From Blasia pusilla (taxonomy: Eukaryota), in NCBI GenBank assembly GCA_050084515.1, contig CM114271.1, positions 9,176,001 to 9,240,000 of the forward strand: DNA of 64,000 nucleotides, in the 5' to 3' direction. Positions 10,403-57,137 of this stretch are shown in pieces. How positions within the stretch are numbered: position 1 is the stretch's first letter; each line of letters begins with the position of its first letter. The position numbers and the translations under genes are program-made. The notes beneath the pieces were generated by a model. The model had not been told where the DNA came from. It worked only from the letters and a program-made list of their open reading frames with translations, and did not search any database.

Positions 10403-12550
10403 GCAGGTACCTCGTCCAATGTAAGAATGCAGGTACGTGGGGAAAATTACCGGCAGCCTTGAAATTGTGGGCTTCACCGCCGGATGCAGAGACATTCTCC
10501 ATGTACGACATGGAGATGGGGCAGCACATGTCCGATTGGGAGGTGGAGAATTGTCCCATTTGGCTCGACTTCAACGACCTTGAAAACATCACCGATAAGG
10601 ATTTACGAGTGCTTCATGATGCAGTGGCCTCAGGACAAGACGACATCCCCAATTTCGTGCAGCCTGAAGACTTCTTCGGAGGAGATGCAGAAGAGCAGGC
10701 CCACAAGATAGCTGAGTTGGCTTCCAAGGTCCGCACAGCCAAAGACAAATCCACAACGGGTCTCAAAGGCAAGGCGAGGGGAGGAAAAAATTCCGAGGCC
10801 GAGTCTTCCCAAAGAGAGGCTGAAGATTCAAGGCCAGAGGCGGAATCGTTCGGGCGAGCGGGGAGAGAGGGTCGGACCAGGTCCTCGGCAAAAAAACCCC
10901 CACCAGAGTCTGAGGTCATAGAGACCCCGACAAGCCGTCCGCAGACTCGGGAGAAGCGGAAGCGAGAGGTGCCAGGGTTGTCCCAAGGAGAATACAGTCC
11001 ATCATCCTTGGGAAGACACAAACAAAAAACGACCGGACAAGCGTCCTCCTTGATTCACTCCTTTCTTTGGATGAGCCGAAGAGCTTCGGGATTCTCAGCG
11101 TCGACACCAGCCATCGAAAAATTGACAACGCTGGGACAGAAGCTCCAACGAAACGGGCACGCTTCCTGGACGGTGAATGGAGTGGTCGAAGAGGTTGCGG
11201 TGGATCTCTTGATCGCCGATCAGCCCTCGGGGTTGTGACTTTGGGGTGAGAATCCGTCGGACGAGATACTTGAGTGGAATGTGCCGCTCACTTATGACCA
11301 GATTGCACTTTTGTTCTCCTTTGCATACGCCTATCTGAGTGACAGGGGCTGCTTCTTGGTGTTGACTGGAGGGAGCGAGGACGAGCTCTTCAACCTCTAG
11401 TGCGTCAAGAGGTCGCTAAAGTGGAGGATGGCACAATCGTGGATCATAAAAAACGAGTACCCACTCCGATCCGCGACGAGTCAGATTCGGGTAAGGCTCA
11501 ATTTCTGTACAATAATTTAAATTATCTTATAATGATGTGTAGAATGAGAGTCAATCTAGGTTTTTTTTGTCCGTGAGCAACCCGTCGGAAGGCGACGGGT
11601 TGCTGGCTTAGAGCAGCCCATGCTTGGCTGAGAGCAACCCGTCAGTTTCCGACGGGTTGCAAACCCGCATGATGTACAGCAACCCGACGGGTTGCGGTTG
11701 CTGAGTTTTTCGGTTGATTTTGGTTTTGGATGCAACCCGTCGATAGCGACGGGTTGCTCTCAGGCGAGCATGGGCTGCTCTAGGCCAGCAACCCGTCGCC
11801 TTCCGACGGGTTGCATCCAAAAACCAAAATCAATTGGGAAAACCCAAAAGCAACTGCAACCCGTCGGACTCCGACTGGTTGATCCAAAGTCAGTTATTGA
11901 AAATGTTCTCAAGGCGACTTCTTTAGTTTCTGACATTGTTTCCAACGTGCTGATTTACAGATGGACCACTCCTACGTCTACTGCTTCGTTCGGCCCGAGC
12001 ACAATTTCCAAGTGTTCAAGATCCAGGATCCTGTGGATCCATGCTCAGATGGGTATAGCTTAGATAGTTTGTACAATTCCCCCTCGGGAATTTACATGCA
12101 AGACAGTACCCCAGTTCTGGGAGGAAGGGAAAAGTCGCCACCCTGATGCAAACGCTCATCGAGCTCTGCTCAAGGCCGGGTGACTTGGTGTTCGACTTAG
12201 TGGGACTTTCAGGGGCAAGTATCAAAGGCGCATGGCAGAGTGGCAGGAACATTCTCGCCTCGAGGGAAGGCAGGAACTGTTTGACCTTTGCAAGGAGGCA
12301 AAGGCAGAATACGAAAGGCTCGTTGGGGCGTACAACTCTCCACCGAAGCCGAGAGCTCCGGTTCCAGACCGACCATTGGTAGTGACTCCATCGTCACTTC
12401 CAACGATTCCAAAAATCGGGAGGGCAAGGCCGAAAGTAATTTTGCAAGAGGTCTCGGACGATGACGAGTCAGTTCAAAGAACTCAACGACCTAGCTTGAC
12501 TGCAGCGTTTGGAGTAGGGAGTTTTTTGATGATGAGGCAAAAGATTTCAT
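10403..12550 (+). pseudogene. 3' part of the MULE cargo gene (amino-MTase-like domain), copy A
   Basis: Exon to 11489, GT-AG intron 11490-11960 full of palindromes, last exon from 11961 (MDHSYVY...GGREKS / MQTLIELCSRPGDLVFDLVGLSG). Contains stops and frameshifts. Confidence 0.8.
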
Positions 12551-13789: not shown

Positions 13790-16559
13790 ACCGGAGCTCT
13801 CGGCTTTGGTGGAGAGTTGTACGCCCCAACGAGCCTTTCGTATTCAACCTTTGCCTCCTGGCAAAAGTCAAACAGTTCCTGCCTTCCCTGGAGGCAGAGA
13901 ATGTTCTTGCCACTCTGCCAGGCGCCTTTGATACTCGCCCCTGAAAGTCCCACTAAGTCGAACACCAAGTCACCCGGCCTTGAGCAGAGCTCGATGAGCG
14001 TTTGCATAAGGGCTGGCGACTTTTCCCTTCCTCCCAAAAGTGGGGTACTGTCTTGCATGTAAATTCCCGGGGGGGAATTGTACAAACTATCTAAGCTGTA
14101 TCCATCTGAGCATGGATCCACAGGATCATGGATCTTGAACACCTGGAAATTGTGCGCGAGCCGAACGAAGTAGTACACGTAAAGAAGCACGCTGGAAACA
14201 ATGTGAGCAACTTGGCATAATGTGCAACACGTCACCAAAGAAGTCGGCTTGACCCTAGAGAACTTTTTCAAATACTAACTTTGGATCAACCTATCGGAGT
14301 CCGGCGGGTTGTTTTTTCCCTGACCAACCCGTCGGAAGGCGACGGGTTGGTCAGGGACAAAACAACCCGTCGGGCTCTCCGTTGTTTTTGTCCATGAGCA
14401 ACCCATCGGAAGACGACGGGTTGCTGGCCTAGAGTAGCCCATGCTCGGCTGAGAGCAACCCGTCGCTTTCTGACGGGTTGCAGCTTTCCGGAAACACAGG
14501 GAAAAACCAAAAGCAACTGCAACCCGTCGGGTTCCGACGGGTTGTAGGTACACCACGGTTTTCCCTGTGTTTCTGGGAAAGATGCAACCCATCGGAAACC
14601 GACGGGTTGCTCTCAGCCGAGCATGGGCTGGTCTAAGCGAGCAACCCGTCGTCTTCCGACGGGTCGCTCACGGACAAAAACAACGGAGATATACTATCTG
14701 AAATTAACACTCATTGAGGCTTACCCAAATTTGAAAATATATTTGATATTATACTACAGGAATTGAGCCTTACCCGAATCTTACTCGTCGCGGATCGGAG
14801 TGGGTACTCGTTTTTTATGATCCATGATTGCACCGTCCTCCACTTTAGCGACCTCTTGACGCACTGGAGGTTGAAGAGCTCGTCCTTGCTCCCTCCAGTC
14901 AATACCAAGAAGCAGCCCCTGTCACTCAGATAGGCGTCTGCAAAGGAGAACAATAGTGCGATTTTGTCATAAGAGAGCGGCACATTCCACTCAGGTACCC
15001 CGTCCGAAGGATTCTCGCCCCATAGTCGCAACCCCGAGGGCAGATCAACGATCAAGAGATCCACCGCAACCTCTTCGACCACTCCATTTACCGTCCAGGC
15101 AGCGTGCACGTTTCGTTGGAGCTTCCATCCCAGCGTTGTCAATTTATCAATGGCTGGTGTCGACGCTTGAGAACTGAAGCTTTTCAGCTCATCCAGTAAA
15201 GGAGTGAACTGAAGGAGGACGCTTGTCCGGGTCATTGTTTGTCTGTGTCTTCCCAAGGATGATGGACAGTATTCTCCTTGTGACAACCCTTGCACCTCTC
15301 GCTTCCGCTTCTCCTGAGTCTGCGGACGGCTTGTCGGGGTCTCTATGACCTCAGACTCTGGTGGGGTTTTCTTCGCCAAGGACCTGGTCCGACCCTCTCT
15401 CCCCGCTCGGCCGGACGATTCCGCCTCTGGCCTTGAATCTTCAGCCTCTCTTTGGGAAGACTCGGCCTCGGAATTTTTCCCTCCCCTCGCCTTGCCTTTG
15501 AGACCCGCTGTGGATTTTTCTTTGGCTGTGCGGACCTTGGAAGCCAACTCAGCTGTCTCGTGGGCTTGCTCTTCCGCATCTCCTCCGAAGAAGTCTTTAG
15601 GCTGCACAAAATTGGGGATGTTGTCTTGTCTTGAGGCCACTACATCATGAAGCACTCGTAAATCCTTATCGATGATGTCTTCAGGGTCGTTGAAGTCAAG
15701 CCAAATGGGGCAATTCTCCACCTCCCAATTGGACATGTGCTGCCCCATCTCCATGTCGTACATGGAGAATGTCTCTCCATCAGGCGGCAAAGCCCACAAT
15801 TTCAAGGCAGCCGGTAATTTTCCCCAAGTACCTGCATTCTTACATTGGACGAGGTACCTGAAGACCATCCATTTGGGCGACTTTTACTCGAATCAATCGG
15901 TCGAAATCGCTCCTGTAGATCTCGCTTCTTCTTTGCTTGATCCCGTTTGTTCCCCTCGATTTCTTCATCAAGCTCTGCCTAAGGGAGGACGCAAACCTTG
16001 AACATTGTCTTGAATCTTGGGTTTTTTATTGGCTTGTCTCGGATGTCGTCAAGCCAAACCTCGAAATCTACAGAACTTTCCAGGTTTGCTTCATCTGGAA
16101 TAGGCTCTAATCTTTTGAGCTCCGCTTGCAGACCGTCCAGCACGGACTTCTTGATAACCCGCAATGCATCCCCGAACGACCATTCGCGTAGCCAGTGGGA
16201 GATCATTGGATCGGACACACCCCGAGGATGGTGTGCCGCCCTCTTTAGGGCCTCTGTGCCCTCGAGACTGATTTTCATCAGTTAAATCCTCCTAGACTCG
16301 CTTATGCTGGACAACGCAAACCGATGCACGCAATCCAGGGACACTTTCTCCCCAATCCGACCTTGCGGATCTTCATCCCTTTTCCGCTGGCGCTTGATAA
16401 TTGCCTTCAGCTCCTTGTAAAACTCCGGACCAAGTTCGGGGTTGAGAATGCTGATATATCGCTGCATCTTGCTCGCCCTGTATTTCGTGGCTGCAGATAC
16501 TGCAGCTTAGATGAATTTTGCGCGCTCAGACCCAAATACTTTCTCCCTCCGCTCTAGCT
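13790..16559 (-). pseudogene. 3' part of the MULE cargo gene (amino-MTase-like domain), copy B, inverted relative to copy A
   Basis: ORF 14711-15868 (VDLLIVDLPSG...AYLSDRGCFLV) and ORF 13747-14271 (EKSPALMQTLIELCSRPGDLVFDLVGLSGASIKGAWQSGKNILCL), separated by a palindrome-rich intron. Confidence 0.8.
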
Positions 16560-16962
16560 GAGGAGCGGTAAGAGAAGAGGAAGAGAGGAAGAGAGGAGAG
16601 AGGAGAGAGGAAACTAGGGTCAACCGAAATTGATACTCTTTTTTGAAGAGAGTTTCCGTCGGGTTGAAGAGAGGAAAATTTTGGTTTGAAATTTTTTGCA
16701 CTTTTTTGTTCATATATTAAGCAATCCCACAGTTTTTTTTTCCTCTTCCATATTTTGGCAACCCCTCTGAGTCCGACGAGTTGCAAATTGCACAAATTTT
16801 AGAAAACTGAAAAATCAGTGGAATCATAAGTGTGGAACCAATCACTTTTTCCATCCAAGGTCTTGAAATAATCTGTCATTTTCCCGGGGCTGAATAGAGT
16901 TCAAGCTCGAAGTGAAGGTTGAGAAAAAAATAAAAGTACAATCTAAAACCTCCTTTGCATCC

Positions 16963-19785
16963 TTAAAGTGGTTTGTTTAAAATACTTCGCACTTCTTTGA
17001 GGGACAGACTTGGTTGGTGGATTCCTACTCCTACCTCCGACTCTCTTAAAACTACCAGCAACACATAGTACATGTGCTTACAAGGGAAATACCTTTTGCC
17101 ACTTGTCTCTCTTTGGACAAAGTCATCACATGAACATGTGGGAAAGCAACAGATGTGCACCACATACACCCCTGTGACACTTGAATTTCTGATGTTGTTC
17201 GACCCAATACATCCTTCCTATTCCATTGCCACTCAAGACATCTTTTGTGGCGATGATCTCCATTTTTGCCTCCCAGTGCTTTGCATTCGCTTTGCTCTCT
17301 CCACCGTTGGCCTGCACATTTTGTTTCTCTTCACCCCATTTCTAGACTCAAACAGAAATAATGGATTGAGATCATCCACCTTCTCCGGGTACATGTTGAC
17401 ATCAATCTTAGGTTGAATAAAAAATGCGAAGGTCTATGTAATGCGAACATGCTCCGAACTTCCCCCGTCTACGAGTCTGAAACCGACACTTGTAAGATTG
17501 TCCACTTCGTCTTGAGTGCAGTTCGTGCCTGCGGCGATGGGCCAAATCGTGGGGGTATTCCTGGGAGCTCCAATGGCAGCCGGATAAGACTTCCGGAAAG
17601 CGCAAGATTCATTTGGGTAGAAGAAGTACTTCAATTGATCCCCGGTCCTCGTGAAACGATCAAAGGTTTTGAGTCCCCAAAACCCACGCAGAGGTCGTCC
17701 AGTCCTTGTACAGTTCTTATTTAGGAAAGTGCCGCATGCTCTCCTAATGCCATCAGATCCTGCCCTGCAGGTGGGTCCACATCCTGGGTTGCTCCGAGAT
17801 ATATGCCACCGTTTTAGGTTGCAATCCACCTCCATAACCGAATCCCATATTGTTGAACCACCCCAGTGACAGGATGTTGCAAACTTCCAGCAACGGAGGG
17901 CTTTTGAAATAAAACATTCACTGATTTTGGAGAAGTAACTCCATCACGGATTTGGGACGAGTCCGGGGTCCCCGAATACCTGGGCGGTGTAATTTCCTCA
18001 TCCAAATCATTCACCGGATTCGTTCCTCGATGCTGCCTCTTCACCTGCCTGAAGTCAAGATACTTATCTGGTCTCCACAAGTCTCGTTCGGATTGCTCTA
18101 CCACCATCTGTATGGGACCTCTTGAAACCCGCCCACGAATATCCCCACCTATGTGTACGTCTTGCTCGAGTGGAGTTCCAGCTACGCACCGGTTGAAGGC
18201 TTCGACATATAATTTTTCATCACCAGATCTCACAGCCGCCCTGACATAGAGCTCGTAGATCGACGGCCCCTTTCCTTTTGTTATGCATTTTGTGAGAAAG
18301 ATATGGGATGTTGCAGACTCTAGCATTGCTGTTGCTTGGTCTTGTTGGCATGCCTCCACAAGTGAAATTCGTTGGCATGCTTGTGACGACCTCCAAGAGG
18401 AATGAACACTTTCTACTCCACTTGTGTTGGGGCAGAGGGCATTTTCATGAACGTTCAATCCCTGCAACCACGGCAATGTTAGAAGGGAACGAAAGTAACT
18501 CAAGAGTCAAAGAAATAAGCGACCTATCGGAACCAGACGGGTTGCAGGCCCGAGGCATCCCATGAACGACTCTCCGACCCGTTTGGTCCCGACGTGTTGT
18601 AACCTTAAACCCACCTACTGCAACCCGTCGGAACCCGACGGGTTGCAAGGCCGAGGCATCCCATGAACGACTCTGTGACCCGTCGGGTCCCAATGGGTTG
18701 CACACTCGCGTTGCACCAAACATCTGGATGCAACCCATCGGTTTCCGTCGGGTTGCACACTCGGGCAACCCGTCGCATCCGACAGCTTGCTTGGTTTCTT
18801 GGGTTTGAAATCCATATAATTCCACCGCTTCTCACCGTGAGCTACAACTTTACAAATAATTCTCAGCGTGAGCTTGACAAGACAAAATAGTGAACTCACC
18901 TGCCGCATGAAGTTTCCCCATTGTCTCATACGCATCTGATCCACGAATCAACCAAGAGCACAACTCTTTGTACTTCCCTCAATCGCATGTCGCCTCCACC
19001 ACCCATGAAGTTCTTCTGGCATTCCATGGCCTGCTTCAAGGTTTTGTTGTCCTTGCAGCGTTGGAGTAGAGTGACATGCTCTGTCCTCTTATTCTCCTTT
19101 ATGCAAGATTTGGTGTACCGGGTCACAGACTGTTGCCAATGGAAAGCATCCAACCTTTCCCTCTCCTGTTGAACCTCTCCACCCCATAACACTTCCCGGA
19201 TAGCAATCCACCCAGGTTGTGCATTGTCCGCCATGAACCCATAAATTTCCGGAGGTGGCCTTTTGTTTTCCTTCACCACCTCCAATAAGAGTAACCAGCA
19301 CATCTTCAAACTGCCAACGTCTTCTGCCTTTACTTCACAGACAAATCTAGTTTTGAGTCCCTTCTCCATATGGTCATCAAGGTGAGCACCCATCGTCAAC
19401 CATCTATTCAGCACTCTGTAGCAAATATCAAAGCTTACCCAGCTGCCGTAAAGATCTTCCCCTTCCCTTATTCGATCTATAAGATTGAGGCCACTCGACG
19501 GACCTGTGGTTGACATTTTGAAGACATAGGCCCTGGATCCCTCGCCTCCTTGGCCCATGAACTGCCATCTCTGAATGAATGGAAATCTGGAGTTGGCCTT
19601 GATTCTGGCGATGGCATCCATTTCGGCCGTCTTTCCATCCAGAACTCGTATCTGACGCAACAAATTCCGGAAGCATTCAGGATCAGCGAGAAATGCGAGA
19701 TTTTCCTAGAGTTGTTTCTCCTCAACCGCCGTGATCTCGCCCTGTCCAGGGATTCCAAGAAATTGTTCACAAATTTGTGATGCCG
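16963..19785 (-). pseudogene. MULE transposase, 5'-truncated (DDE core and SWIM finger)
   Basis: VSFDICY, FMADNA, DAFHW, PNTSGVESVH and C-terminal CSCDDF...PCKHM. One palindrome-rich intron at ~18461-18899. Confidence 0.85.
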
Positions 19786-22700
19786 GATGAGGAATCTGCA
19801 TTTCTTCATCTGGGATGGAAATCACAGGTTCATGGCGGAGACCAAGTTTGCGGAGGAGCGGCCCAACTCATTGGAGGCACATTTTTGCGTGAAGGCAGTG
19901 GTCCTTCACCCATTCCCTCATCACATGGCGACGGTGGAGATGGCAATGCATGCCATGAACATGTGAGTATCTTTAACACTTACGCAACTCGTCGGACTCC
20001 GACGAGTTGCTCGATTGATGAATGGGTTAGGTTTTTTTTTGCCGAAAGAAACTCGTCGGACTGCGACGGGTTGCTCGACTCGATGCTTTTTCGGATATTT
20101 TTTTAAGAATGCAACTCGGTCGGACTCCGACGAGTTGTTTGATTGACCACAAATTTAATTAGTTTTTGGCCCAAAGCAAACCGTCGAAGTCCGACGGGTT
20201 GCTCGACTCGCCGCCTTGTCAGGATGTTTTTTGAAGAATGCAACTCGTCGAACTCCGACGAGTTATTCGATTGACCGCAGGTTTAGTATGTTTTTTGCCC
20301 AACGCAACCCGTCGGAGTCCGACGGGTTGCTTGCCTCGAAACTGTTTTTGGCCGAAATCAACTCGTCGGAGTCCGACGGGTTGCATTCGGAAGTTGGTTC
20401 CCCAAATTTTGCATCAAATTGCAAGTTTCCATTCAATTGCGCAACCTGTCGGACTCCGACAGGTTGCTATGTTTACATAAGTATGTTCAGTTGCACAACC
20501 CATCGGAGTCCGACGGGTTGAAACCAGGCATTATCAAATCTGAATGCAATCCGTCGGACTCCGACAGGTTGCATCATTTAGCTCGTTCTTAGAATCCGAC
20601 CTTGAGTTGTGACGACCCTTCGGACTCCGATGGGTTGCAGGAACCCATGTAATTTCCTGACAGGTTGAGTTTGGATGTGCAAGATTGTATCGGAGGGGAA
20701 TGTCATCCACCACTGGATCCAGGACTGCGATCGGGTGAGGAAGGTGCTTACGACGCACCCGGGAGAGTACAGGGGGTTCTTGGGCGATACCCTTGTTAAT
20801 CAGATGCTTGCAAAGGGTGTTTAGATTAAAAAGAAAACTTGGGCAAATAAGTTTATTTCCCAAGATGCAGCCGTAACCATCCTTTGCTGGTCGAAGATAC
20901 AGGCCACGAAGAAGAGCGCTGCACTGGAGCTGCAGCGGAGGGAGAAGGTATCTGCGTCTGAGCGCGTGAAATTCATCCAAGCAGCAATATCTGTAGCAAC
21001 GAAATACACGGCGAGCAAGATGCAGCGATACATCAGCATTCTCAACCCCGAACTTGGTCCGAAGTTCTACAAGGAGCTGAAGGCGATTATCAAGCGCCAG
21101 CGGAAGAGGGATGAAGATCCGCATGGTCGGATTGGGGAGAAAGTGTCCCTGGATGGCGTGCATTGGTTTGCGTTGTCCGGCATAAGCGAGTTTAGGAGGA
21201 TCCGACTGATGAAAATCAGTCTCGAGGGCACAGAGGCCCAGAAGAGGGCGGCACACCATCCTCCGGGTGTGTCCGATCCAGTGATCTCCCACTGGCTACG
21301 CGAATGGTCGTTCTGGGACGCGTTGCGGTTATCGTGAAGTCCGTCTTTGGACGGATGCAAAGCGAGCTCGAAGATTAGAGCCCAACCCGGATGAAGCAAA
21401 CCTTGAAAGCTCTGGAGATTTCGAGGTTTGGCTCGACGACATCCGAGACAAGCCAACCAAAAACCCAGGATTCAAGACAATGTTCAAGGTTTGCGTCCTC
21501 CCTCAGGCAGAGCTTGACGAAGAAGTAGAGGGGAACAAACGGGATCAAGCAAAGAAGAAGCGAGATCTGCAGGAGCAGACGGCCGATTCTGTTCGACAAA
21601 AAGCTGCCCAACGGATGGTCTTCAGGTACCTCGTCCAGTGTAAGAATGCAGGTACGTGGGGAAAATTACCGGCAGCCTTGAAATTGTGGGCTTCATCGCT
21701 GGATGCAGAGACATTCTCCATGTATGACATGGAGATGGGGCAGCACATGTCCGATTGGGAGGTGGAGAATTGTCCCATTTGGCTCGACTTCAACGACCCT
21801 GAAAACATCACCGATAAGGATTTACGAGTGCTTCATGATGCAGTGGCCTCAGGACAAGACGACATCCCCAATTTCGTGCAGCCTGAAGACTTCTTCGGAG
21901 CAGATGCAGAAGAGCAAGCCCACGAGATAGCTGAGTTGGCTTCCAAGGTCCGCACAACCAAAGACAAATCCACAACGGGTCTCAAAGGCAAGGCGAGGGG
22001 AGGAAAAAATTCCGAGGCCGAGTCTTCCCAAAGAGAGGTCAAGATTCAAGGCCGAGGCGGAATCGTTCGAGCGGCGAAAGGGAGAGAGGGTCGGACCAGG
22101 TCCTCGGCAAAAAAAACCCCACCAGAGTCTGAGGTCATAGAGACCCCGACAAGCCGTCCGCAGACTCGGGAGAAGCGGAAGCGAGAGGTGCCAGGGTTGT
22201 CCCAAGGAGAATACAGTCCATTATCCTTGGGAAGACACAGACAAACAACGACGCGGACAAGCGTCCTCCTTCAGTTCACTCCTTTACTAGATGAGCTGAA
22301 GAGCTACAATTCTCAAGCGTCGACACCAACCATCGATAAATTGACAACGCTGGGATGGAAGCTCCAACGAAACGGGCACGCTGCCTGGACGGTGAATGGA
22401 GTGGTCGAAGAGGTTGCGGTGGATCTCTTTATCGCTGATCTGCCCTCGGGGTTGCGACTTTGGGGCGAGAATCCGTCGGACGAGGTACCTGAGTGGAATG
22501 TGCCGCTCTCTTATAACCAAATTGCGCTATTGTTCTCCTTTGCAGACGCCTATCTGAATGACAGGGGCTGCTTCTTGGTGTTGACTGGAGGGAGCAAGGA
22601 CGAGCTCTTCAACCTCCAGTGCGTGAAGAGGTCGCTAAAGTGGAGGACGGCGCAATCGTGGATCATAAAAAATGAGTACCCACTCCGATCCGCGACGAGT

Positions 22701-23752
22701 AAGATTCGGGTAAGGCTCAATTCCTGTACTATAATCTCAATTATATTTTAATGATGTATATAATGAGTGTTTATCTCCGTTGAGTGAGTATAATGAGTGT
22801 CAATCTCCGTTTTTTTTGTCCGTGAGCAACCCGTCGGAAGGCGACGGGTTGCAGGCTTAGAGCAGCCCATGCTCGGCTGAGAGCAGCCCATCGGTTTCCG
22901 ACGGGTTGCATCTTTCCCACATACACAGGGAAAACAATGGTGTACCTGCAACCCGTCGAGACCCGACGGGTTGCACTTGCTTTTGGTTTTTCCCTGTGTT
23001 TCGAAAAGTCGCAACCCGCCTCGATAGCGACGGTTGCTCTCAGCGAGCATGGGTCGCCTAAAAACAACCCGTCGCCTTCCGACGGGTTGCTCACGGACAA
23101 TAACAACGGAGCCCGACGGGTTGGTCCGGGACAAAACAACCCGTCGGACTCCGACAGGTTGATCCAAAGTTAGTAATTGAAAATTTTCTTAAGCCGACTT
23201 CTTTAGTTGCTGACATTGTTTCCAACGTGCTTATTTACAGATGGACCACTCCTACGTCTACTTCTTCGTTCGGCCTGAGCACAATTTCGAGGTGTTCAAG
23301 ATCCAGGATCCTGTGGATCCATGCTCATATGGGTACAGCTTAGATAGTTTGTACAATCCCCCCCGGGAATTTACATGCAAGACAGTACCCCACTTCTGGG
23401 AGGAAGGGAAAAGTTGCCAGCCTTGATGCAAACGCTCATCGAGCTCTGATCAAGGCCGGGTGACTTGGTGTTCGACTTAGTGGGACTTTCAGGGGCAAGT
23501 ATCAAAGGCGCATGGCAGAGTGGCAGGAACATTCTTTGCCTCGAGGGAAGGCATGAACTCTTTGACCTTTGCAAGGAGGCAAAGGCAGAATACGAAAGGC
23601 TCGTTGGGGCGTACAACCATCCACCAAAGCCGAGAGCTCCGGTTCCAGACCCACCCTTGATAGTGACTCCATCGTCACTTCCAACGATTCCAAAAATCGG
23701 GAGGGCAAGGCCGAAAGTAATTTTGCAAGAGCTCTCGGACGATGACAAGTGA
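19785..23752 (+). pseudogene. ParB-like + amino-MTase-like cargo gene, copy C (longest contiguous stretch, 5'-truncated)
   Basis: Exon fragment with WDGNHRF to 19962; intron 19963-~20682; long exon to 22709; intron 22710-23240; last exon 23241-23752. Splice phases give continuous frames apart from scattered lesions. Confidence 0.8.
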
Positions 23753-24955
23753 GTTCAAAGAACTCAATGACCCAGCTTGATTGCAACGTTTGGAGTAGGG
23801 AGTTTTTTGATGATGAGGCAAAAGATTTCATAGAATAGATCAAATGTATAGCTACAAGCTTTTTTCGGATGATATAAAGCAGAAGATTTTTTCGAACGAT
23901 GGTGGTGCTTGTAAAAGTTTGCTGAAAATTTTTTGTCTTTTCGAATGTGATCGTCTATGTACTCCGCGGACTTCTATTTTGCAACCCGTCGGATTTCTCT
24001 TGCTTGCAACTTTTCACTTTTTGACCACTGCAACCCGTCCGATTTCTCCTGCTTGCAACTTTTCACTTTTTGACCACTGCACCTTTTTACCACTTCCAGG
24101 CAACCTGTCAGATTCCGACAGGTTGCCTGATCGGACTCTTTCCCTGTTGGTCCAACTTAAGAGGCAGTCTGGCGAGCTTCTTCCCTTGGCACCCTCCCCT
24201 CAACTCGTAAAGGCAGGCGTAGGCTTCTTTTCTTCTCTCAGACGTGTTGGATTCCTACTACCTGTGCAATTGCCATAATGGTATTACCGGGGACGGAGCA
24301 CATATTGATACTGGATGGGTGTCACATTGAAGAGCGTATAAGGTATACTGCCGAGGAAGGCGGTGGGACTCAAATCAGGTTACATGGGACCGTTATGGTG
24401 TACCTAGGGGGGGCCAAGGTTCTCGTATTCGCCAACATTTTCGATCCCCGTCTACAATCGGCCAGAGGAGCCACTTGTATCCCAGGACATTCCTTTGGTA
24501 CTGTCACCGAGGAAAGTTAGGAGTAAATTTGGAGGTGCGGTAAGACGAGAGGAAGAGAGGAAGAGAGGAGAGAGGAGAGAGGAGAGAGGAAGAGAGGAGA
24601 GAGGAGAGAGGAAACTACCTTCAACCGAAATAGATAATTTTTTTTGAAGAGAGTTTCCGTTGGGTTGAAGAGAGGAAACTTTTTGTGTGAATATTTTTGC
24701 ACTGTTTTGTTCATTTATTAAACAATCCCACAGCTTTTTTTTCCTCTTCCATATTTTGGCAACCCCTGTGAGTCCGACGAGTTGCAAATTGCACAAAATT
24801 TTTGCAAATTGCACAAAAAAAAGTGTGGAACCAATCACTTTTTCCATCCAAGGTATGGAAAAAATCTATCATTTGCCCCGGGCTGAATAGAGTTCAAGCT
24901 CAAAGTGAAGGTTGAGGAAAAATAAAAGTACAATCTAAAACCTCATTTTGCATCC

Positions 24956-27900
24956 TCAAAGTGGTTTGTTTAAAATACTTCGCACTTTTTTTAGGGACAG
25001 AATTGGTTGGTGGATTCCTACTCCTACCTCCGACTCTCTTAAAACTACCAGCAACACATAGTACATGTGCTTACAAGGGAAATACCTTTTGCCACTTGTC
25101 TCTCTTTGGACAAAGTCATCACATGAACATGTGGGAAAGCAACAAATGTGCACCACATACACCCCTGTGACACTTGAATTTACAGTGTTGTTCCTGACCC
25201 AATACATCCTTCCTATTCCATTGCCACTCAAGACATCTTTTGTGGCGATGATCTCCATTTTTGCTTCCCGAGCTGATGCAATTCGCTTTGCTCTCTCCAC
25301 CGTTGGCCTGCACATTCTGTTTCTCTTCACCCCATTTCTAGACTCAAACAGAAATAGTGGATTGAGATCATCCACCTTCTCCGGGTATATGTTGACATCA
25401 ATCTTGGGTTGAATACGAAATGCGAAGGTCTCTGTAATTCGAACATGCTCCGAACTTCCCCCGTCTACGAGTCTGAAACCGACACTTGTAAGATTTTCCA
25501 CTTCGTCTTGAGTGTAGTTCGTGCCTGCGGCGATGGGCCAAATCGTGGGGATATTCCTGGGAGCTCTAATGGCAGCCGGATAAGACTTCCGGAAAGCGCA
25601 AGATTCATTTGGGCAGAAGAAGTACTTCAATTGATCCCCGGTCCTCGTGAAACGATCAAAGGTTTTGAGTCCCCAAAACCCAGGCAGAGGTCGCCCGTCC
25701 TTATGTACAGTTCTTATTTAGGAAAGTGCCGCATGCTCTCCTAATGCCATCAGATCCTGCCCTGCAGGTGGGTCCACGTCCTGGGTTGCTCCGAGATATA
25801 TGCCACTGTTTTAGGTTGCAATCCACCTCCATTACCGGAATCCCATATTGTTGAACCACCCCAGTGACAGGATGTTGCGAACTTCCAGCAACGGAGGGCT
25901 TTTGAAATAAAACATTCACTGATATTGGAGAAGTTACTCCATCACGGATTTGGAAGCAATCCGAGGTCCGCGAATACTTGGGCGGCATAATTTCTTCATC
26001 CAAATCAATCACTGGATTCATTCCTTGATGATGCCTCTTCACTTGCCTGAAGTCAAGATACTTATCTGGTCTCCACGAGTCTCGCTCGGACTGCTCTACC
26101 ACCATCTGTATGGGACGTCTTGAAATCCGCCCACGAATATCCCCACGAATGTGTACGTCTTGCTCGAGTGGAGTTCCAGCTACGCACCGGTTGAAGGCTT
26201 CGACATACAATTTTTCATCACCAGATCTCACGGCCATACGACATAGAGCTCGTAGATCGACGGCCCTTTTCCTTTTGTTATGCCTTTTGTGAGAAAGATA
26301 TGGGATGCTGCAGGCTGTAACATTGCTCTTGCCTGGTCTTGTTGGCATGCCTCCATTAGTGAAATTCGTTGGCATGCTTGTGACGACCTCCAAGAGGAAT
26401 GAACACTTTCTGCTACACTTGTGTTGGGGCAGAGGGCATTTTCATGAACGTTCAATCCCTGCAACGACGACAATGTTAGAAGGGAACAAAAATAACCCAG
26501 GAGTCAAAGAAATAAGCGACCTGTCGGAACCAGATGGGTTGCACGCCCGAGGCATCCCATGAACGACTCTGCGACCCGTCGGGTCCCGACGTGTTGTAAC
26601 CTTAAACCCACCTACTGCAACCCGTCGGAACCCGACGGGTTGCAAGGCCGAGGCATCCCATGAACGACTCTGTGACCCATCGGGTCCCGACGGGTTGCAC
26701 ACTTGGGTTGCACCAAACATCTGGATGCAACCCGTCGGTTTCCGTCGGGTTGCACCCTTGGGCAACCCGTCGGTTTCCCTCGGGTTGCACACTCGGGCAA
26801 CCCGTCGGTTTCCGCCGCGTTGCACACTCGGGAAACCCGTCGCATCCGGCAGCTTGCTTGGTTTCTTGGGTTTGAAATCCATATAGTTCCCACGCTTCTC
26901 ACCCTGAGCTACAACTTTACAAACAATTCTCAGCGTGAGCTTGACAAGACAAAATAGTGAACTCACTTGCCACATGAAGTTTCCCCATTGTCTCATACGT
27001 ACAGTCCACCACCTCAACCAAGAGCACAACTCTTTGTACTTCCCCTCAATCGCATGCTTCCTCCACCACCCATGAAGTTCTTCCTGGCATTCCATGGCTT
27101 TGCTTCAAGGTTTCTTTGTCCTTGCAGCGTTGGAGTAGAGTGACATGCTCTGTCCTCTTATTCTCCTTGATGCAAGATTTGGTGTACCGGGTCACGGACT
27201 GTTGCCAATGGAAAGCATCCAACCTTTCCCTCTTCTGTTGAACCTCTCCACCCCATAACACTTCCCGGATAGCAATCCACCCAGGTTGTGCATTGTCCGC
27301 CATGAACCCATAAATTTCCGGAGGTGGCCTTTTGTTTTCCTTCACCACCTCCAATAAGAGTAACCAAAGACATCTTCAAAGCGCCAACGTCTTCTGCCTT
27401 TACTTCACAGACAAATATAGTTTTGAGTCCCTTCTCCACATGGTCATCAAGGTGAGCACCCATCGTCAACCATCTATTCAGCACTCTGTAGCAAATATCA
27501 AAGCTTACCCAGCTGCCGTAAAGATCTTCCCCTTCCCTCATTCGATCTATAAGATTGAGGCCACTCGACGGACCTGTGGTTGACATTTTGAAGACATAGG
27601 CCCTGGATCCCTCGCCTCCTTGGCCCATGAACTGCCATCTCTGAATGAATGGAAACCTGGAGTTGGCCTTGATTCTGGCGATGGCATCCATTGCGGCCGT
27701 CTTTCCATCCAGAACTCGTATCTGACGCATCAAATTCCTGAAGCATTCAGGATCAGCGAGAAATGCGAGATTTTCCCATAGTTGTTTCTCCTCAACCGCC
27801 GTGATCTCGCCCTGTCCAGGGATTCCAAGCAATTGTTCACAAATTTGTGATGCCGTTGTGAGCTTGATCACCCCGGGCTTTGAACCGGAGAGTTTTTCAG

Positions 27901-28979
27901 AGACCTCGGCTACTTTCTTCGCCACATCCTCCTTGATGTGTCTTTGAATTGCATCGGTCACAGGATGAGTGTGGGAGCCAACATGAACTGCCAGCCTTGT
28001 ATACTCTGACGTGGAGCCCAAGTCATGGTCAATGAAAAATATGTATGCAAGACACGCTCCAACGCAGAAGGGCGATGCTTGACAATGAGGACATCGATGG
28101 CCTCCCGGCGGTATTGTGGCACCCACCTCGTATGGAGTTTCTGCATTCTTGGGGGGGAATTGCAACGTATTGACTCGCCCGTTGCGCTCTAGATACGGGC
28201 ATGCTGGACTTCTACACTCCAAGGCTCCTACGCATTGGCGGCGGGAGACAATCCAAGGACCATCTGGGATGGAAGCACTGGTCCGTTGAAGCCTGCACCA
28301 TCGATGACAATCAGACTTTCTGTCCATACCCTTCAGGCGTCCTCCATCCTTCTTTTGAGCAGGAGCAGCAAGTGGAGGCAACTCAAAAATGCAATTACCA
28401 TCGTACTTGGGCGGCAGCTCGTCGACAAGAATATGCTTGAACATTTTCAAGGGCAGAGACGAAAGCAAACTATTGCCTGATACTCGCAAGAGGAACGAGT
28501 AGGCGGACAGAGGGCCTGATTGGTGTCCGACAGATCCGCTGAGGTTGATAACATCCGGAATCTCTTCAGGAAGAACAACATTGTTACGAGTGTGCGAAGT
28601 TGGAGTCGAAGCCGGATCTGCAGAGCTTGGAGTTGCAAACGTAGAGCTCAGAGCACTAGGAAATTCTAGACCGTCTACTTGGGAAACAGATTTAATTCGT
28701 GGGCGGGCCGTAAACTCAGTATTGACCATTTGCATGTAGGAGATTCCATACTTTACGGTCTGAGGTCACTGGATGGACCGTCTCACCTATTATGTCTTCC
28801 GTACCTTCCACTCTAACATCTTTGGATACAAAGATGGTTCCAATTTGAAGAAGAAATCGAACAGACAGAAAATTTTCATCCACTGCTACGAAAGACTCAC
28901 GAGCTTGGGGTCGAATGATTTCTGGTTGAGGAAGGGCCGCCAAATGACTGCCACAAGTGAGCTTAACATAATTATCCAT
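24956..28979 (-). pseudogene. Full-length but frameshifted transposase: GCM/WRKY-like Zn domain + MULE DDE + SWIM
   Basis: Exon 1 ~28979-26967 (QCVGALECRSPACPY, CPHC, VHVGSHTHP, VSFDICY, FMADNA, DAFHW); GT-AG intron 26966-26459; exon 2 26458-24956 (PNTSVAESVH, CSCDDF...PCKHM). Confidence 0.88.
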
Positions 28980-29549
28980 TCCAAGAAGATTCCTACGGGA
29001 GGAGACTGAGAATGAGAATGAGAATATTTAATTTATAGTGAATAGGAAAAGATACTCTCGATGATTTTTCTTGACAAGATGAATTCGGTGGGGAGATTAT
29101 GCGACACAATGGATCCATTCAGAACACATTCAATTGTGTTGCAATATGTTACCGGATTTGGGAAGCAGAGGGTTGCGCATCACTTGGAACCCGTTGGAGT
29201 CCTGGTAACTCAGAAATTACCCGAAGCTTACCAAAGCCTGCAACCCGTCGGCATCGGACGGGTTGCACGCTTCTGCTAAACATTGTCGAAGCGAGCAACC
29301 CGTGGCTCTCTGGCGACTTGCTGGGATACCGCTCCTTCTTGCTCGAAGATGCGAGGCGTGCAAACCGTCTGTTCGGCGAGGCGTGCAACTGTCGCCGTCA
29401 ACGGGTTGCGCAAGGGCATCGCTTGTGGTGCGATCGGCCGGACTCGGCGACTTGCACGGGAAGCCATCGTTTCTAACCCTTGATAAGGGAAGCGCGTGCA
29501 ACAGCGATCTTGACGGATTGCCCAAAATATGTCCGTTCCGTCCCAAACA

Positions 29550-29852
29550 CGGCGGAGGCGCGCAACATGTCGGTCTCTGACGGCTTGCGCGGGTACCTCG
29601 CGTTGTTTTCCGAAGATGACGGAGGCGCTCAACCCGTCGGTCTCCGACGGGTTGCTCGCGCACGTGGCGACGTTCGGAGGATGGCGGAGGCACGCAACAT
29701 GTCGGTCTCCGACGGGTTGCGCGGGTACCTCGCGTTCTTTTCCGAAGACGACGGAGGCGCTCAACCCGTCGGGCTCCGACGGGTTGCTCGCGCACGTGGC
29801 GACGTACCCAGGATGATGGAGCCGCGCAACCTGTCAGACTCCGACGGGTTGC
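29550..29852. repeat. 132-bp tandem units, each with two palindromes, in the divergent intergenic region
   Basis: CGCAAC anchors at 29561, 29693 and 29825. The same period occurs at 44631, 44763 and 44895. Confidence 0.85.
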
Positions 29853-29912
29853 GATTTTTCACGTCCGGACTTCCGTAACATTCGGCACGTCACCGTCGAA
29901 AGGACGACGGGA

Positions 29913-29970
29913 CCCAACGGTCAACCCAACGGCTAGAAAGGTATAAATAGGGCAGAAGTCGCTCATTTCC
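29913..29970 (+). promoter_or_regulatory. Putative cargo-gene core promoter: two MSA-like elements, TATA box and Inr-like CTCATTT
   Basis: CCCAACGGTCA 29913-29923, CCCAACGGCTA 29925-29935, TATAAATA 29942-29949. Conserved in the second copy. Confidence 0.6.
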
Positions 29971-30189
29971 GGTTTCTCATTTTGCGATCCTCATTCCTCA
30001 CTCCTCACTCTCCCGTGCAGCAGCTGATCAGATACGAAGGGCATCTCACGCGGCGACACATCGCGAGTCGATAGGACGGAACGAGAGCGAGACGGTTCGA
30101 CCGAGCGATATCGGGACGATTCGAGCTAACCACCAAGGCGAGACGAGCTCCCATCTCAACATCAGCAAGGCAACTGATCAAGGGATTCG

Positions 30190-33100: not shown

Positions 33101-33777
33101 AAAACAACGGAGCCCGACGGGTTGTTTTAGTCTCGACCAACCCGTCGGAAGGCGACGGGTTGGTCGGACAAAACAACCCGTTGGACTCGACAGTTGATCC
33201 AAAGTCGATGAATTGAAAATGTTCTCGACTTCTTTAGTTCTTGACATTGTTTCCAACGTCTTTGATTCTGAGATGGACCACTCCTACATTTCTTTGCCCG
33301 TTCGGCCCGAGCACAATTTCAGTGTTCAAGATCCAGGATCCTGTGGATCCATGCTCAAATGGGTACAAAGCTTAGATAGTTTGTACAATTCCCCCCCGAG
33401 AATTTACATGCAAGACAAATACCCCACTTACGGGAGGAAGGAAAAGTCGCGATCTGATGCAAACGCTCATCCGGCTCTGCTCAAGGCCGGGTGACTTGGT
33501 GTTCGACTTAGTGGGACTTTCGGGGCAAGTATCAAAGGCGCTGGCAGAGTGGCAGAACATTCTGCCTCGAGGAAGGCAGGAACTGTTTGACCTTTGCAAG
33601 GAGGCAAAGGCAGAATACGAAAGGCTTGTTGGGGCGTACAAATCTCCACCAAAGCCGAGAGCTCCGGTTCCAGACCCACCCTTGGTAGTGACTCCATGGT
33701 CACTTCCAACGATTCCAAAAATTGGGAGGGCAAGGCCGAAAGTAATTTTGCAAGAGCTCTCGGACGATGACGAGTGA
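30190..33777 (+). pseudogene. ParB/amino-MTase-like cargo gene, copy D; ParB exon deleted, indel-rich
   Basis: The 5' part matches 45276 onward until ~30320, then jumps into intron palindromes. Intact acceptor GTGTAG|G at 30832/30833. Last exon 33273-33777. Confidence 0.75.
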
Positions 33778-56990: not shown

Positions 56991-56991
56991 C

Positions 56992-57114: not shown

Positions 57115-57137
57115 CTAAACGCACTTCCCGAATCTGA

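Follow-up and report, generated by a model that had tools for sequence, protein, structure and literature searches.

A 27-bp palindrome that recurs in the window, the whole stretch of 64,000 nucleotides of Blasia pusilla DNA analysed here, is the characteristic cis-element of a highly abundant Mutator-like DNA transposon of about 10 kb, and its arrays on balance probably serve as dense duplex-DNA binding sites for a protein encoded by the transposon itself. The analysis itself establishes the anatomy and placement of the arrays, the absence of selection for pairing, the folds of the encoded proteins and the skipping of one array in RNA; that the arrays are bound, by which protein and with what consequence, is inferred.

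The palindrome and its host element

The exact sequence GCAACCCGTCG-N5-CGACGGGTTGC was found 11 times in the window, compared with 0.00 matches in 100 shuffles, with starts at positions 11577, 11788, 18620, 20304, 22826, 22948, 26617, 30390, 46893, 50197 and 50260. Three of these (20304, 30390 and 46893) had been reported as perfect copies in the first-pass annotation of the sequence. A relaxed census of non-overlapping copies, in which at most three mismatches per arm (sum of five or less) were allowed and loops of 3 to 7 nt were tried, gave 107 palindromes in the window, with 0 expected by chance. All were located between positions 11577 and 50342, and none at 1-11.5 kb or 50.4-64 kb. The 13 clusters named in the annotation were all recovered, and the census added a partial array (39228-39352) together with about 15 sites that occur singly or in pairs.

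The gap between the 11-nt arms was constrained within the window, being 5 nt in 100 of the 107 copies, 4 nt in the other seven and never 3, 6 or 7 nt. The core had earlier been described as nearly constant in length and free in sequence; the constancy of length holds, whereas the sequence follows the consensus G-A-N-T-C (G in 85, A in 58, T in 79 and C in 90 of 100 copies). Since this core is palindromic in consensus, the whole consensus of the aligned copies, GCAACCCGTCGGAnTCCGACGGGTTGC, is a 27-bp palindrome about one central base, and the unit is a dyad of two inverted 13-nt half-sites (GCAACCCGTCGGA) meeting at that base. Information was approximately 1-1.9 bits per position inside the motif, the centre excepted, values which in the arm columns are inflated because the copies were selected on their arms (columns 12, 15 and 16 being outside the selection), and did not exceed 0.23 bit at 48 of the 50 flanking positions, with 0.39 bit at the base directly after the right arm. 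The motif is sharply bounded and, within the window, specific to the transposon family.

The palindrome copies in the window are decaying. The richness in CG and CCG that had been noted earlier was borne out, and decay was mainly by C>T and G>A at those sites, these two changes accounting for 134 of the 248 arm mismatches. GANTC is the target of the methyltransferases CcrM and M.HinfI, and gene 2 of the element is methyltransferase-like. It occurs at an ordinary frequency within the element (178 observed, 145 expected) and at only 38 of the 107 palindrome centres, where its G, A, T and C simply extend the palindrome, so that methylation of this centre is to be regarded as a lead only.

The region from 11.5 to 50.4 kb is a mosaic of 80-93 % identical copies of a two-gene DNA transposon of about 10 kb, each element carrying about 30 palindromes, and is flanked by LTR-retrotransposon sequence without palindromes. 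As an indication of abundance, a 10-kb part of the element had matches in 118,501 contigs from a single DNA run. The main copies are:

16560..24537, + strand, element copy 2, with an internal deletion from the equivalent of 42863 to that of 46318
24532..34516, + strand, element copy 1, with all four array types present
40521..47000, + strand, element copy 3, with an intact transposase ORF, truncated after array IV

No terminal inverted repeat (TIR) was found, the left-end 15-mer having no inverted counterpart at a right end which is not cleanly defined, because the copies are tandem or rearranged; target-site duplications, 8-11 bp in MULEs, were not readable. MULEs without TIRs do exist. In 80 metagenome loci (429 kb) coding for distant relatives of the transposase (23-42 % identity), the palindrome was absent, no recurrent family of perfect 9-bp-stem hairpins was found, and 11-mers resembling the half-site at two mismatches or fewer numbered 45, below the chance estimate of about 108. 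A literature search on either arm sequence returned unrelated primer-like strings only, and the motif appeared nowhere in print there.

Arrays in introns and between genes

Four array types were distinguished, with tandem periods of 35, 55, 64/128 and 67/132 bp. The numbers of palindromes per array differed among paralogs, with 5, 8 and 8 in type II, 6 and 9 in type III and 10, 7 and 8 in type IV. The arrays and remaining sites are:

11577..11882, array type I, partial copy, five palindromes
14286..14667, array type I, inverted partial copy, seven palindromes
22826..23162, array type I, copy 2, five palindromes inside the gene 2 intron 22710-23240; itself a 307-bp higher-order palindrome with 47-nt arms that are 96 % complementary
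32884..33163, array type I, copy 1, five palindromes; RNA depth 0-1, compared with 2-6 on either side
50004..50342, array type I, inverted partial copy, six palindromes
18519..18790, array type II, copy 2, five palindromes, with fewer 35-bp units
26516..26857, array type II, copy 1, eight palindromes with periods of 55 and 35 bp
26966-26459, - strand, candidate transposase-gene intron holding array II of copy 1
39228..39352, partial degenerate type II array, three palindromes
41529..41870, array type II, copy 3, eight palindromes within 41979-41472 (- strand), a candidate intron
29240..29852, array type III, copy 1, six palindromes (period 67/132 bp) in the stretch that separates the 5' ends of two divergent genes; RNA depth about 0-1
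44259..44921, array type III, copy 3, nine palindromes, between the transposase ORF (ending at 43761) and the first gene 2 ORF (45138)
19984..20638, array type IV, copy 2, ten palindromes with a period of 64/128 bp and GACTC or GAGTC at the centres
19963-20663, gene 2 intron filled by array IV of copy 2; its donor is GTGAGT (19963), its acceptor AG (20662-20663)
30338..30788, array type IV, copy 1, seven palindromes; compared with copies 2 and 3, the part 30324-30672 has the inverted orientation, and the palindromes coincide with 'opposite strands' joints in RNA reads
46520..46983, array type IV, copy 3, eight palindromes; the donor hexamer GTGAGT (46499-46504) lies 16 bp upstream of the array
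16758..16784, single palindrome roughly 200 bp in from the element's left end, with paralogs at 24759, 37530 and 40735
24100..24126, single palindrome in the element tail, with paralogs at 12819, 34077 and 49006
13459-13546, 48337-48424, 34685-34711 and 35704-35801, other single or paired palindromes

One 27-mer recurs in four array types, whose spacers are unrelated and whose periods differ, and also as singles, so that it is the palindrome that has been kept and not the repeat unit. By inspection, the spacings of the palindromes showed no consistent helical phase.

None of the 107 palindromes overlapped a coding-like mask, made from tblastn matches of 11 relatives and seven hand-chosen window ORFs, which covered 51 % of 10380-50430, in agreement with the concentration in non-coding DNA described earlier. 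The arrays lie in three introns and in the region between the two divergent genes, with singles near the element ends, and occupy all the sizeable non-coding DNA that can be defined in the element. Since any insertion or expansion in an element that has to preserve its genes would be excluded in this way, the exclusion alone is no proof of function.

Arrays I, II and IV are bordered by canonical GT..AG signals, which are found again in the paralogs. RNA runs with the same species label contained only 202-293 reads of at least 90 % likeness, a number that does not suffice to delimit every intron, and none of the listed sequence records matching the stretch was recorded as RNA. Depth over array II (bin 26464-26807) was 0, 0.08 and 0, compared with 3-9 in the adjoining bins. 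A joint found only in RNA, 25635>26857 (11 reads in two runs, 0 DNA contigs), skips array II; it is the sole such joint among those listed and its ends are non-canonical on this copy (CC..TG). Array IV was present in RNA at 1-3x on both strands, so that not every array is cleanly removed from transcripts.

Proposed recognition of the dyad and alternative explanations

In addition to the complete palindromes, 18 orphan half-sites were found, all within the element mosaic and none in 24 kb of flanks. The lone half-sites are tandemly repeated and recur in paralogs, for example:

23980..24081, + strand, tandem unit of 48-49 bp in 2.1 copies, with a lone half-site GCAACCCGTCGGA
12699-12799 and 49052-49152, paralogs of this unit

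The arms were paired in 87.2 % of cells, compared with 86.5 ± 0.4 % when the 3' arms were shuffled (equal or higher in 26 of 500 shuffles), and pairs with two-sided change numbered four, compared with 5.0 (448/500). Counted by cell, two-sided changes were in small excess, 18 compared with 10.2 ± 2.8, a value reached in six of the 500 shuffles. Compensated transversion pairs were CCAAC..GTTGG (at 14324, 33137 and 50004) and GTCC..GGAC (at 39326). A perfect palindrome folded at -15.2 kcal/mol (z about -7, 12-bp stem). Four of the six sites in the type I consensus of five paralogs were perfect, from which it follows that the source element kept its sites perfect. Only one of the eight type II paralog-consensus sites was perfect, the shared deviations being asymmetric, and the asymmetric sites shared by paralogs folded no better than shuffles (-3.4 kcal/mol, z -0.77) and kept one good half-site. 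The A3>G change, present in 11 copies overall and common in type II, gives a G-T pair on the + strand and A-C in the transcribed - strand.

A protein site had been preferred to an RNA hairpin in the first-pass annotation, and the present analysis supports that preference: the half-sites lie at a fixed distance, the arms pair as independent half-sites would, without convincing selection for pairing, 18 half-sites stand alone, and some of the sites that all paralogs share are incapable of forming a hairpin. Recognition of duplex DNA by a protein is therefore favoured. The palindromic centre G-A-N-T-C, which a hairpin loop would not need, also counts for protein binding.

That the arrays are functionless, i.e. 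a palindromic minisatellite grown by slippage or unequal exchange and tolerated outside genes, is possible although unlikely. Slippage of a single minisatellite would copy the spacers too, whereas here the spacers are unrelated, and four arrays, about ten singles and the lone half-sites share one bounded 27-mer or 13-mer, which in the type I consensus is recovered perfect at four of the six sites. Such an origin would nonetheless fit the tandem organisation, the unit numbers that vary among paralogs, the inversion of one array in copy 1 and the enrichment of homology breakpoints at the arrays (25 of 89, compared with 13.5 expected); many sites are also degenerate, and absence from coding DNA would be expected under purifying selection on the source element.

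It is unlikely that the palindromes act through structure, as DNA cruciforms or hairpins or as intronic RNA hairpins, with possible roles in splice-site bridging, small-RNA production or the pausing of replication or transcription. The stability of the perfect copies, the 307-bp palindrome of palindromes formed by array I, the intronic location of three arrays, and the slight two-sided excess with its two compensated transversion pairs would agree with such roles, but arm pairing hardly differs from that in shuffles and the arm sequence itself, beyond complementarity, is constant at all sites. The single perfect site among the eight of type II, the A-C mismatch produced by A3>G in the transcribed strand, the conservation of orphan half-sites, the position of array III in poorly transcribed intergenic DNA and the outcome of an Rfam scan (0 matches) likewise argue against a structural role. 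A tRNA scan also gave 0 matches.

Insertion of an independent MITE or foldback element into the transposon, an origin raised in the first-pass annotation, is very improbable: the long inverted arms of array I are foldback-like and the motif is bounded, but the arrays are at the same places in all paralogous copies and hence predate amplification, no target-site duplication was seen by eye at the array edges, none of the 107 palindromes in the window lies outside the transposon family, and DNA word depth in run X1 was 153-8,253 for the arrays and 20,000-142,000 for the element body, which is weak evidence because contigs break in repeats.

Binding to a protein of the transposon remains the preferred explanation of the arrays, although the decay of the copies in the window counts against it. 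Tandem duplication has multiplied the half-site dyad into arrays, and two protein subunits would occupy each palindrome on double-stranded DNA. The likely use would be self-recognition, in that dense clusters would enable the protein to pick out its own family from all the repeats present; the bound protein may then recruit the transposase and activate or de-silence the element. To our knowledge, few transposons are known to tell their own copies from other repeats and to resist silencing, namely those of VANC, TnpA and AtMu1c, all in Arabidopsis or maize, and the role in self-recognition is suggested by analogy with the clustered motifs used by these proteins.

Candidate binding proteins and known systems

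The first candidate binder would be the transposase, through its WRKY/GCM-type domain, and the second the accessory protein encoded by gene 2. Both had been proposed earlier; the GCM-like domain is supported by middling structural matches, whereas the ParB fusion is the weaker proposal. The relevant coding regions are:

41980..43758, - strand, transposase core exon, 593 amino acids modelled
24959..25717, - strand, downstream coding region homologous to the C-terminus of the relative P0005 and to 20 metagenome loci
21285..22709, + strand, gene 2 middle exon, ORF P0002
46023..46498, + strand, gene 2 exon with a ParB/sulfiredoxin-like motif, DGNHR (lead only)
49389..49784, - strand, gene 2 exon downstream of array I in the best-preserved copy, a degenerate SAM-motif half of an amino-methyltransferase

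The transposase model (pLDDT 81.7) has a WRKY/GCM-like domain at about residues 85-335 and a DDE RNase-H-like domain at about 348-593. The top Foldseek matches were to the ISCth4 transposase (probability 0.99-1.00, E 1.3e-3); VIA gave middling Z-scores of 7.7, 7.4 and 7.1 for this transposase over model residues 348-593, and a Z of about 6 for retroviral integrase cores. Atlas features placed the transposase at 0.94 to MULE / ZSWIM RNaseH-like clusters. ISCth4 is a member of IS256, which is kin of Mutator. The model, at these middling Z-scores, thus shows a DDE transposase whose catalytic fold is RNase-H-like and of the IS256/Mutator kind. None of 12 family members matched Pfam MULE (PF10551) or Transposase_mut at E up to 1, the window ORFs matched neither, and a PDB sequence search with the transposase family gave no match; the lack of a Pfam MULE match indicates a divergent lineage, the MULE membership of which rests on fold and domain order. 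SWIM (PF04434) was matched weakly and below the gathering score by 24959-25717 (- strand, E 0.017) and 37574-37930 (- strand, E 0.031).

The N-terminus of the transposase aligned with GCM 1odh_A (Z 6.4, rmsd 4.4, 137 of 157 residues) and WRKY 5w3x_D (Z 6.2, rmsd 2.9, 73 of 73 residues), both Z-scores being middling (below 8), and the family alignment has invariant Cys and His columns. WRKY-GCM1 domains are described as DNA-binding domains of MULE transposases (available part of PMC1702500). The GCM target given in the available part of PMC2172107, ATGCGGGT, has CGGGT alone in common with the half-site, which is a lead only.

The motif FFIWDGNHRFMAW in P0168 resembles the DGxHR box of ParB. The ParB-like exon matched DUF1015 weakly (E 0.013) and had no PHROG, NCBIfam or PDB match and no homologue among longer proteins, and no ParBc Pfam match was found among 81 + 53 + 54 window ORFs. 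In Pfam scans of the same 188 ORFs, no SET or 2OG-dependent oxygenase domain was found. The last approximately 170 amino acids of P0002 resemble the N-half of an amino-methyltransferase, where VDLFIADLPSG ('DLPS') stands at the place where DPPY would be expected; P0002 had no homologues at similar lengths, and a single-sequence AlphaFold model of residues 300-475 had a pLDDT of 35.5. P0164 matched PHROG DNA methyltransferase families (E 8.8e-6, 1.4e-5 and 7.5e-4), PF01555 (N6_N4_Mtase / MT-A70-like, the beta class of DNA amino-methyltransferases) below the cut-off of 26.7 (20.6 bits, E 4.8e-4) and M.RsrI (E 0.087, DFFAGSG of M.RsrI aligning with DLVGLSG), and had no match in NCBIfam. The methyltransferase-like half is better supported by sequence than the ParB-like half. 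Intact (D/N/S)PP(Y/F/W) and FxGxG catalytic motifs are absent from the methyltransferase-like halves of gene 2, and their decay suggests a non-catalytic, DNA-binding remnant.

A stronger reading, which must be considered quite improbable, is that a phage-type fusion of ParB and amino-methyltransferase with decayed catalysis reads the GANTC-centred palindromes and keeps host cytosine methylation off. After loading on the palindromes, the protein would perhaps spread along the arrays, in the way ParB spreads from parS, and by covering the CG- and CHG-rich introns and promoter it would ward off methylation. Components of bacterial partition and modification systems would have given rise to an anti-silencing device independently of VANC. 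In a bolder variant, the gene 2 enzyme would still be active and write N6-methyladenine at the GANTC centres.

The Blasia element offers an unusually clean and long target, a 27-bp dyad, with two testable candidate readers, and its introns are built almost wholly of putative binding-site arrays. It would add a second case, this time not from red algae, of a ParB- or methyltransferase-type accessory gene accompanied by arrays of inverted repeats. If binding is confirmed, the protein and its long site would make a transferable pair, and the element would help to explain how a giant transposon family escapes or loses control; if binding fails, the arrays would be palindromic minisatellites that shape the rearrangement of transposon clusters.

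Bacterial ParB-parS also uses a palindromic site, often in multiple copies, bound by a dimeric protein. The Blasia site is likewise palindromic and multi-copy, whereas its context is eukaryotic and intronic, and 'parS-like' can be used as an analogy only; no site shared with prokaryotic or phage parS was found, the exact palindrome occurring at 0 loci in 2.9 million viral contigs and at one locus in a prokaryote genome-contig collection.

In the red alga Bostrychia, the EnSpm/CACTA transposon Plavaka carries PAG2, an N6-adenine methylase with SET, and PAG3, a ParB-like protein with a 2OG oxygenase, and 'tandem arrays of inverted repeats' lie beside the ParB-type gene, the protein of which is proposed by the authors to bind its own element (available part of bioRxiv 10.1101/2025.02.11.637652). 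Like the Blasia element, Plavaka is a DNA transposon, and its accessory functions of ParB and DNA-adenine-methylase type have putative counterparts in gene 2 of Blasia. The transposase superfamily differs, the fold in Blasia being IS256/Mutator-like; in Blasia a degenerate methyltransferase and a possible ParB motif are joined in a single gene, and the Blasia arrays, unlike those of Plavaka as described in that part, are inside introns. The likeness is one of description.

How the Muta1 transposase binds is governed by a palindromic terminal motif and by how many subterminal repeats there are, and restoring the palindrome restores binding (available part of PMC5499845). Muta1 and foldback-type MULEs share with the Blasia element a WRKY-GCM1-type transposase (in Blasia putative) and a palindromic motif with tandem short repeats. 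The Muta1 repeats are terminal, forming 145-bp TIRs of a 10-bp terminal palindrome and nine 12-bp repeats (PMC5499845), whereas the arrays of Blasia lie inside the element, within its introns and promoter region. Clustered motifs are also bound by TnpA of En/Spm and by the AtMu1c transposase, which leads to local hypomethylation and activation (bioRxiv 10.64898/2026.08.24.746577). As in the proposal for Blasia, an element-encoded protein is combined with dense family-specific motif clusters, but these clusters are at the termini and their motifs, about 10 bp, are not described as palindromes in the available part of that source.

VANC21, the anti-silencing protein of the Arabidopsis element VANDAL21, binds arrays of a motif located in the introns and in the intergenic and terminal non-coding parts of a MULE, and these arrays evolve as dynamic tandem repeats (available part of PMC5735166). 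In that part of the source the VANC motif is 9 bp, non-palindromic and in one orientation, whereas that of Blasia is a 27-bp dyad, and the accessory gene of Blasia is methyltransferase-like, without detectable homologues. Both systems have a Mutator-type host and a short family-specific motif in non-coding parts, in tandem repeats of which the unit number varies among copies and the high density is key. The hallmark of the VANC type, a dense family-specific motif in non-coding DNA in the form of dynamic tandem repeats, is found in the Blasia element.

Occurrence and shape of the palindrome

The exact sequence GCAACCCGTCG-N5-CGACGGGTTGC is found 11 times in the window, compared with 0.00 in 100 dinucleotide-preserving shuffles, and the three copies listed as perfect in the first-pass annotation are all among these matches. 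A relaxed census, which tolerated 3 mismatches in each arm and 5 in sum, tried loops of 3-7 nt and counted non-overlapping copies, gave 107 palindromes between positions 11577 and 50342, including all 13 of the clusters annotated earlier, and none in the other 24 kb of the window. The core between the arms was 5 nt long in 100 of the 107 and 4 nt long in the other 7; lengths of 3, 6 and 7 nt did not occur, so that the near-constant length noted in the first pass holds for the window. The core sequence, which had been called variable, is not free; its consensus is G-A-N-T-C, so that the entire consensus forms a palindrome of 27 bp with a single base at its centre. Within the 27 bp, each position other than the centre holds about 1-1.9 bits of information, and 48 of the 50 flanking positions hold 0.23 bit or less; the selection of copies inflates the values for the arm columns, yet columns 12, 15 and 16, which were unused in selection, are also conserved.

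The exact palindrome had no match in the viral collection and a sole match among the 185,579 species of the prokaryote collection, an isolated site on a contig of an uncultured Coriobacteriales MAG (L081:1501-1527) which is most likely due to chance. No Rfam family matched the palindrome, and no printed occurrence was found in the literature.

The element and its two genes

Between 10.4 and 50.4 kb the sequence is a mosaic in which one element, about 10 kb long, is present in several copies, 80-93 % identical to each other in a self-comparison of the window:

16560-24537, element copy 2
about 24532-34516, element copy 1
40521 to about 47000, element copy 3
13788-15860 and 47561-50426, inverted partial copies

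No terminal inverted repeat of the element was found. Every element copy has a purine-rich microsatellite, (GAGAGGA)n, right at its left end (16575-16620, 24547-24612, 37326-37370 and 40536-40590; period 7 with 9 copies according to TRF for 24547-24612). On the right side of copy 1, a segment of about 1 kb is duplicated in tandem (34502-35519 and 35520-36574, 88.8 % identity) and is found again, inverted, at 48608-47561 (92.8 %).

The family is present in very high numbers in the organism: a 10.3-kb stretch of the element matched 118,501 contigs from a single DNA run, and the family must account for much of that genome. In one DNA run with 473 million letters, the element body (24400-34700) had summed word depths of 20,000-142,000. 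Parts of the stretch are also present in air-metagenome runs.

The flanks of the window (1-10400 and 50430-64000) are LTR-retrotransposon sequence with reverse transcriptase, RNase H, integrase, gag, protease and zinc knuckle. They contain repeats at 1-2192 and 58324-60511 (92 % identity), inverted repeats at 2251-3735 and 53198-51685 (90 %), and a 516-bp inverted pair at 53197-53712 and 61598-61083 (98.8 %). An ORF at 61910-62488 (minus strand) has a clear PHD finger (PF00628, E 2e-11) and adjoins a reverse-transcriptase fragment (62400-62948); together they may represent a retrotransposon with a chromatin-reader domain. The interval 3939-5009 has a GC content of 0.38, a strong skew of G over C and, within it, direct repeats about 250-470 bp long with 79-87 % identity.

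The two genes of the element are divergently oriented, gene 1 on the minus strand and gene 2 on the plus strand. The first mates of RNA read pairs were mostly on the plus strand over 24.7-29.2 kb and mostly on the minus strand over 33.3-34.7 kb, which with the usual stranded chemistry corresponds to RNA from the minus and plus strands, respectively, in agreement with divergent genes. The coding parts referred to below are:

41734-43761, minus strand, longest ORF of gene 1, transposase
21285-22709, plus strand, and 49389-49784, minus strand, methyltransferase-like parts of gene 2

The longest ORF of gene 1 has 11 unnamed relatives, and 2,855 representatives at E ≤ 0.001, and no Pfam match. A structure model made from a 50-sequence alignment (mean pLDDT 81.7) resembled the ISCth4 transposase in its C-terminal half (Foldseek probability 0.99-1.00, VIA Z 7.1-7.7), which also matched retroviral integrase cores and Hermes. 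Residues 85-335 could be superimposed on a DNA-bound GCM domain (Z 6.4, rmsd 4.4, 137 of 157 residues) and residues 120-266 on a WRKY domain (Z 6.2, rmsd 2.9, 73 of 73 residues). Protein-language features placed the protein with MULE/ZSWIM clusters (0.94), and a downstream region, which gives weak SWIM matches, shares homology with the C-terminal end of a longer relative. The predicted domain order is that of a Mutator-like transposase, of a divergent lineage. WRKY-GCM1 domains are described as DNA-binding domains of MULE transposases (PMC1702500).

Gene 2 is an orphan, no homologues having been detected. The first-pass annotation had described its product as a ParB fusion, which is plausible with unequal halves. 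The methyltransferase-like half is the better supported one: the exon that follows array I has matches to phage DNA-methyltransferase families (E 8.8e-6) and PF01555 (E 4.8e-4, under the threshold of that family), and the nearest clusters of the exon preceding it are MT-A70 (0.85-0.87), a lead. This half looks catalytically degenerate: DLVGLSG aligns with the SAM motif DFFAGSG (DxFxGSG) of M.RsrI, DLPS occupies what we take to be the position of the DPPY motif, and both signature motifs are altered in every copy of gene 2 examined, which points to a domain that is non-catalytic and has been retained for some other role. The ParB half is weak. The exon before array IV contains DGNHR, presumably a ParB/sulfiredoxin box, and a DUF1015 match (E 0.013) is the one tool result pointing to this exon as ParB-like.

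Position and decay of the arrays

The palindromes form four types of array, with periods of 35, 55, 64/128 and 67/132 bp, each at one fixed place in every element copy that holds that part; single palindromes lie about 200 bp inside the left end of the element and in its tail. An independent small mobile element, as which the motif might also be read, is very improbable. The two genes are separated by array III, and the other arrays lie in putative introns:

19984-20638, array IV of copy 2, the feature under study, in a 701-nt interval from GTGAGT at 19963 to CCTGACAG at 20663
22710-23240, array I interval, GTAAGG donor and TTTACAG acceptor
26966-26459, minus strand, array II interval, CAA/GTGAGT donor and TTGCAG/G acceptor

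The array IV donor is found again at 46499 (copy 3), and the reading frame is open across the array IV interval. The array I donor recurs at 11491 and, on the minus strand, at 14773; the array II splice signals recur at 41979-41472, and its acceptor also at 18463. In the decayed copy 1, the array II acceptor sets a frame that fails to enter the downstream 246-aa ORF, and the exon structure is approximate there.

RNA depth over array II (26464-26807) was 0, 0.08 and 0 in three runs, compared with 3-9 on either side, which supports an intronic position. A joint from 25635 to 26857 that skips array II was present in 11 RNA reads of two runs and absent among the DNA contigs listed; its ends are non-canonical on copy 1, and it may instead reflect a deletion in a transcribed copy. 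Depth was 0-1 over array I, compared with 2-6 alongside, and about 0-1 over array III. Array IV was covered by RNA from both strands at 1-3x, and reads switched strand at palindromes (e.g. joint 30479/30722, 30 reads in one run); it is therefore not cleanly kept out of transcripts. The non-coding placement described in the first pass was borne out, as none of the 107 palindromes lies in coding-like sequence, which occupies 51 % of the region; as the 107 represent about nine ancestral sites, the chance of no overlap is about 0.49^9 = 0.002 and not the binomial 7e-34.

Mismatches in the arms were C>T or G>A in 134 of 248 cases, and transitions per site were highest at CG (79 over 8 sites) and CHG (26 over 2 sites), indicating that the copies in the window are decaying as methylated repeats do; the perfect palindrome is that of the source element. 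Unit numbers of the arrays vary among element copies, and array IV of copy 1 (30324-30672) is inverted relative to 20046-20383 (copy 2) and 46582-46933 (copy 3), the adjacent gene keeping its orientation. Homology breakpoints fell at arrays in 25 of 89 cases, compared with 13.5 expected, an enrichment partly due to alignments breaking in variable repeats; the arrays look like rearrangement hot spots. That they are a palindromic minisatellite without function is unlikely.

Proposed recognition of the motif and comparison with known systems

Action through structure, as a hairpin or cruciform, is quite unlikely. Perfect copies would fold very well as single strands (-15.2 kcal/mol, 12-bp stem), and array I forms a 307-bp palindrome that is itself made up of palindromes. 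However, paired cells amounted to 87.2 %, compared with 86.5 ± 0.4 % when the 3' arms were shuffled (26 of 500 shuffles as high), because each arm by itself resembles the consensus, and pairs changed on both sides numbered 4, compared with 5.0 in shuffles (448 of 500 reached this number). Single cells changed on both sides were in excess (18 compared with 10.2, reached by 6 of 500 shuffles), mostly CG or CHG transitions and within what relatedness of the copies alone can give. Among consensus sites rebuilt from paralogs, four of six of type I were perfect and one more compensated, but only one of eight of type II was perfect, the deviations being asymmetric and common to all three copies; such sites folded no better than shuffles (-3.4 kcal/mol, z -0.77). 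There are also 18 orphan half-sites within the element, where about 1 would be expected over the entire window; among them is a lone GCAACCCGTCGGA carried by a 48-49-bp tandem unit that is present again in paralogs. The arms keep a fixed gap, and the palindrome of the consensus continues through its centre. Taken together, the pairing tests, asymmetric sites, orphan half-sites and fixed gap favour a 13-nt half-site that would be recognised on duplex DNA, probably most often as a head-to-head pair. The best-supported interpretation of the sequence is that of the first-pass annotation, a putative dimeric protein site with element-encoded binders, over an RNA hairpin. An element-encoded reader protein would bind the transposon-internal arrays of the family-specific motif, and that the arrays serve such a reader is, in our view, somewhat probable.

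Transposon-internal arrays of a family-specific motif are of a known kind. For the MULE VANDAL21, specificity is reported to come from a high density of motifs in tandem repeats, whose units are gained and lost among copies (PMC5735166), and TnpA and AtMu1c proteins are described as binding clustered motifs and causing hypomethylation (bioRxiv 10.64898/2026.08.24.746577). The Muta1 transposase is reported to need a palindromic terminal motif, second-site changes that restore the palindrome also restoring binding (PMC5499845). For Plavaka elements of a red alga, the authors propose, from observation and as a hypothesis without experiments, that inverted-repeat arrays are bound by a ParB-type protein (bioRxiv 10.1101/2025.02.11.637652); the likeness drawn here is with the arrays as described there. 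The present element adds a variant of this kind, differing from the known systems in the transposase superfamily, in a motif that is a 27-bp dyad, in one fused accessory protein, apparently non-catalytic, and in introns that consist almost wholly of arrays.
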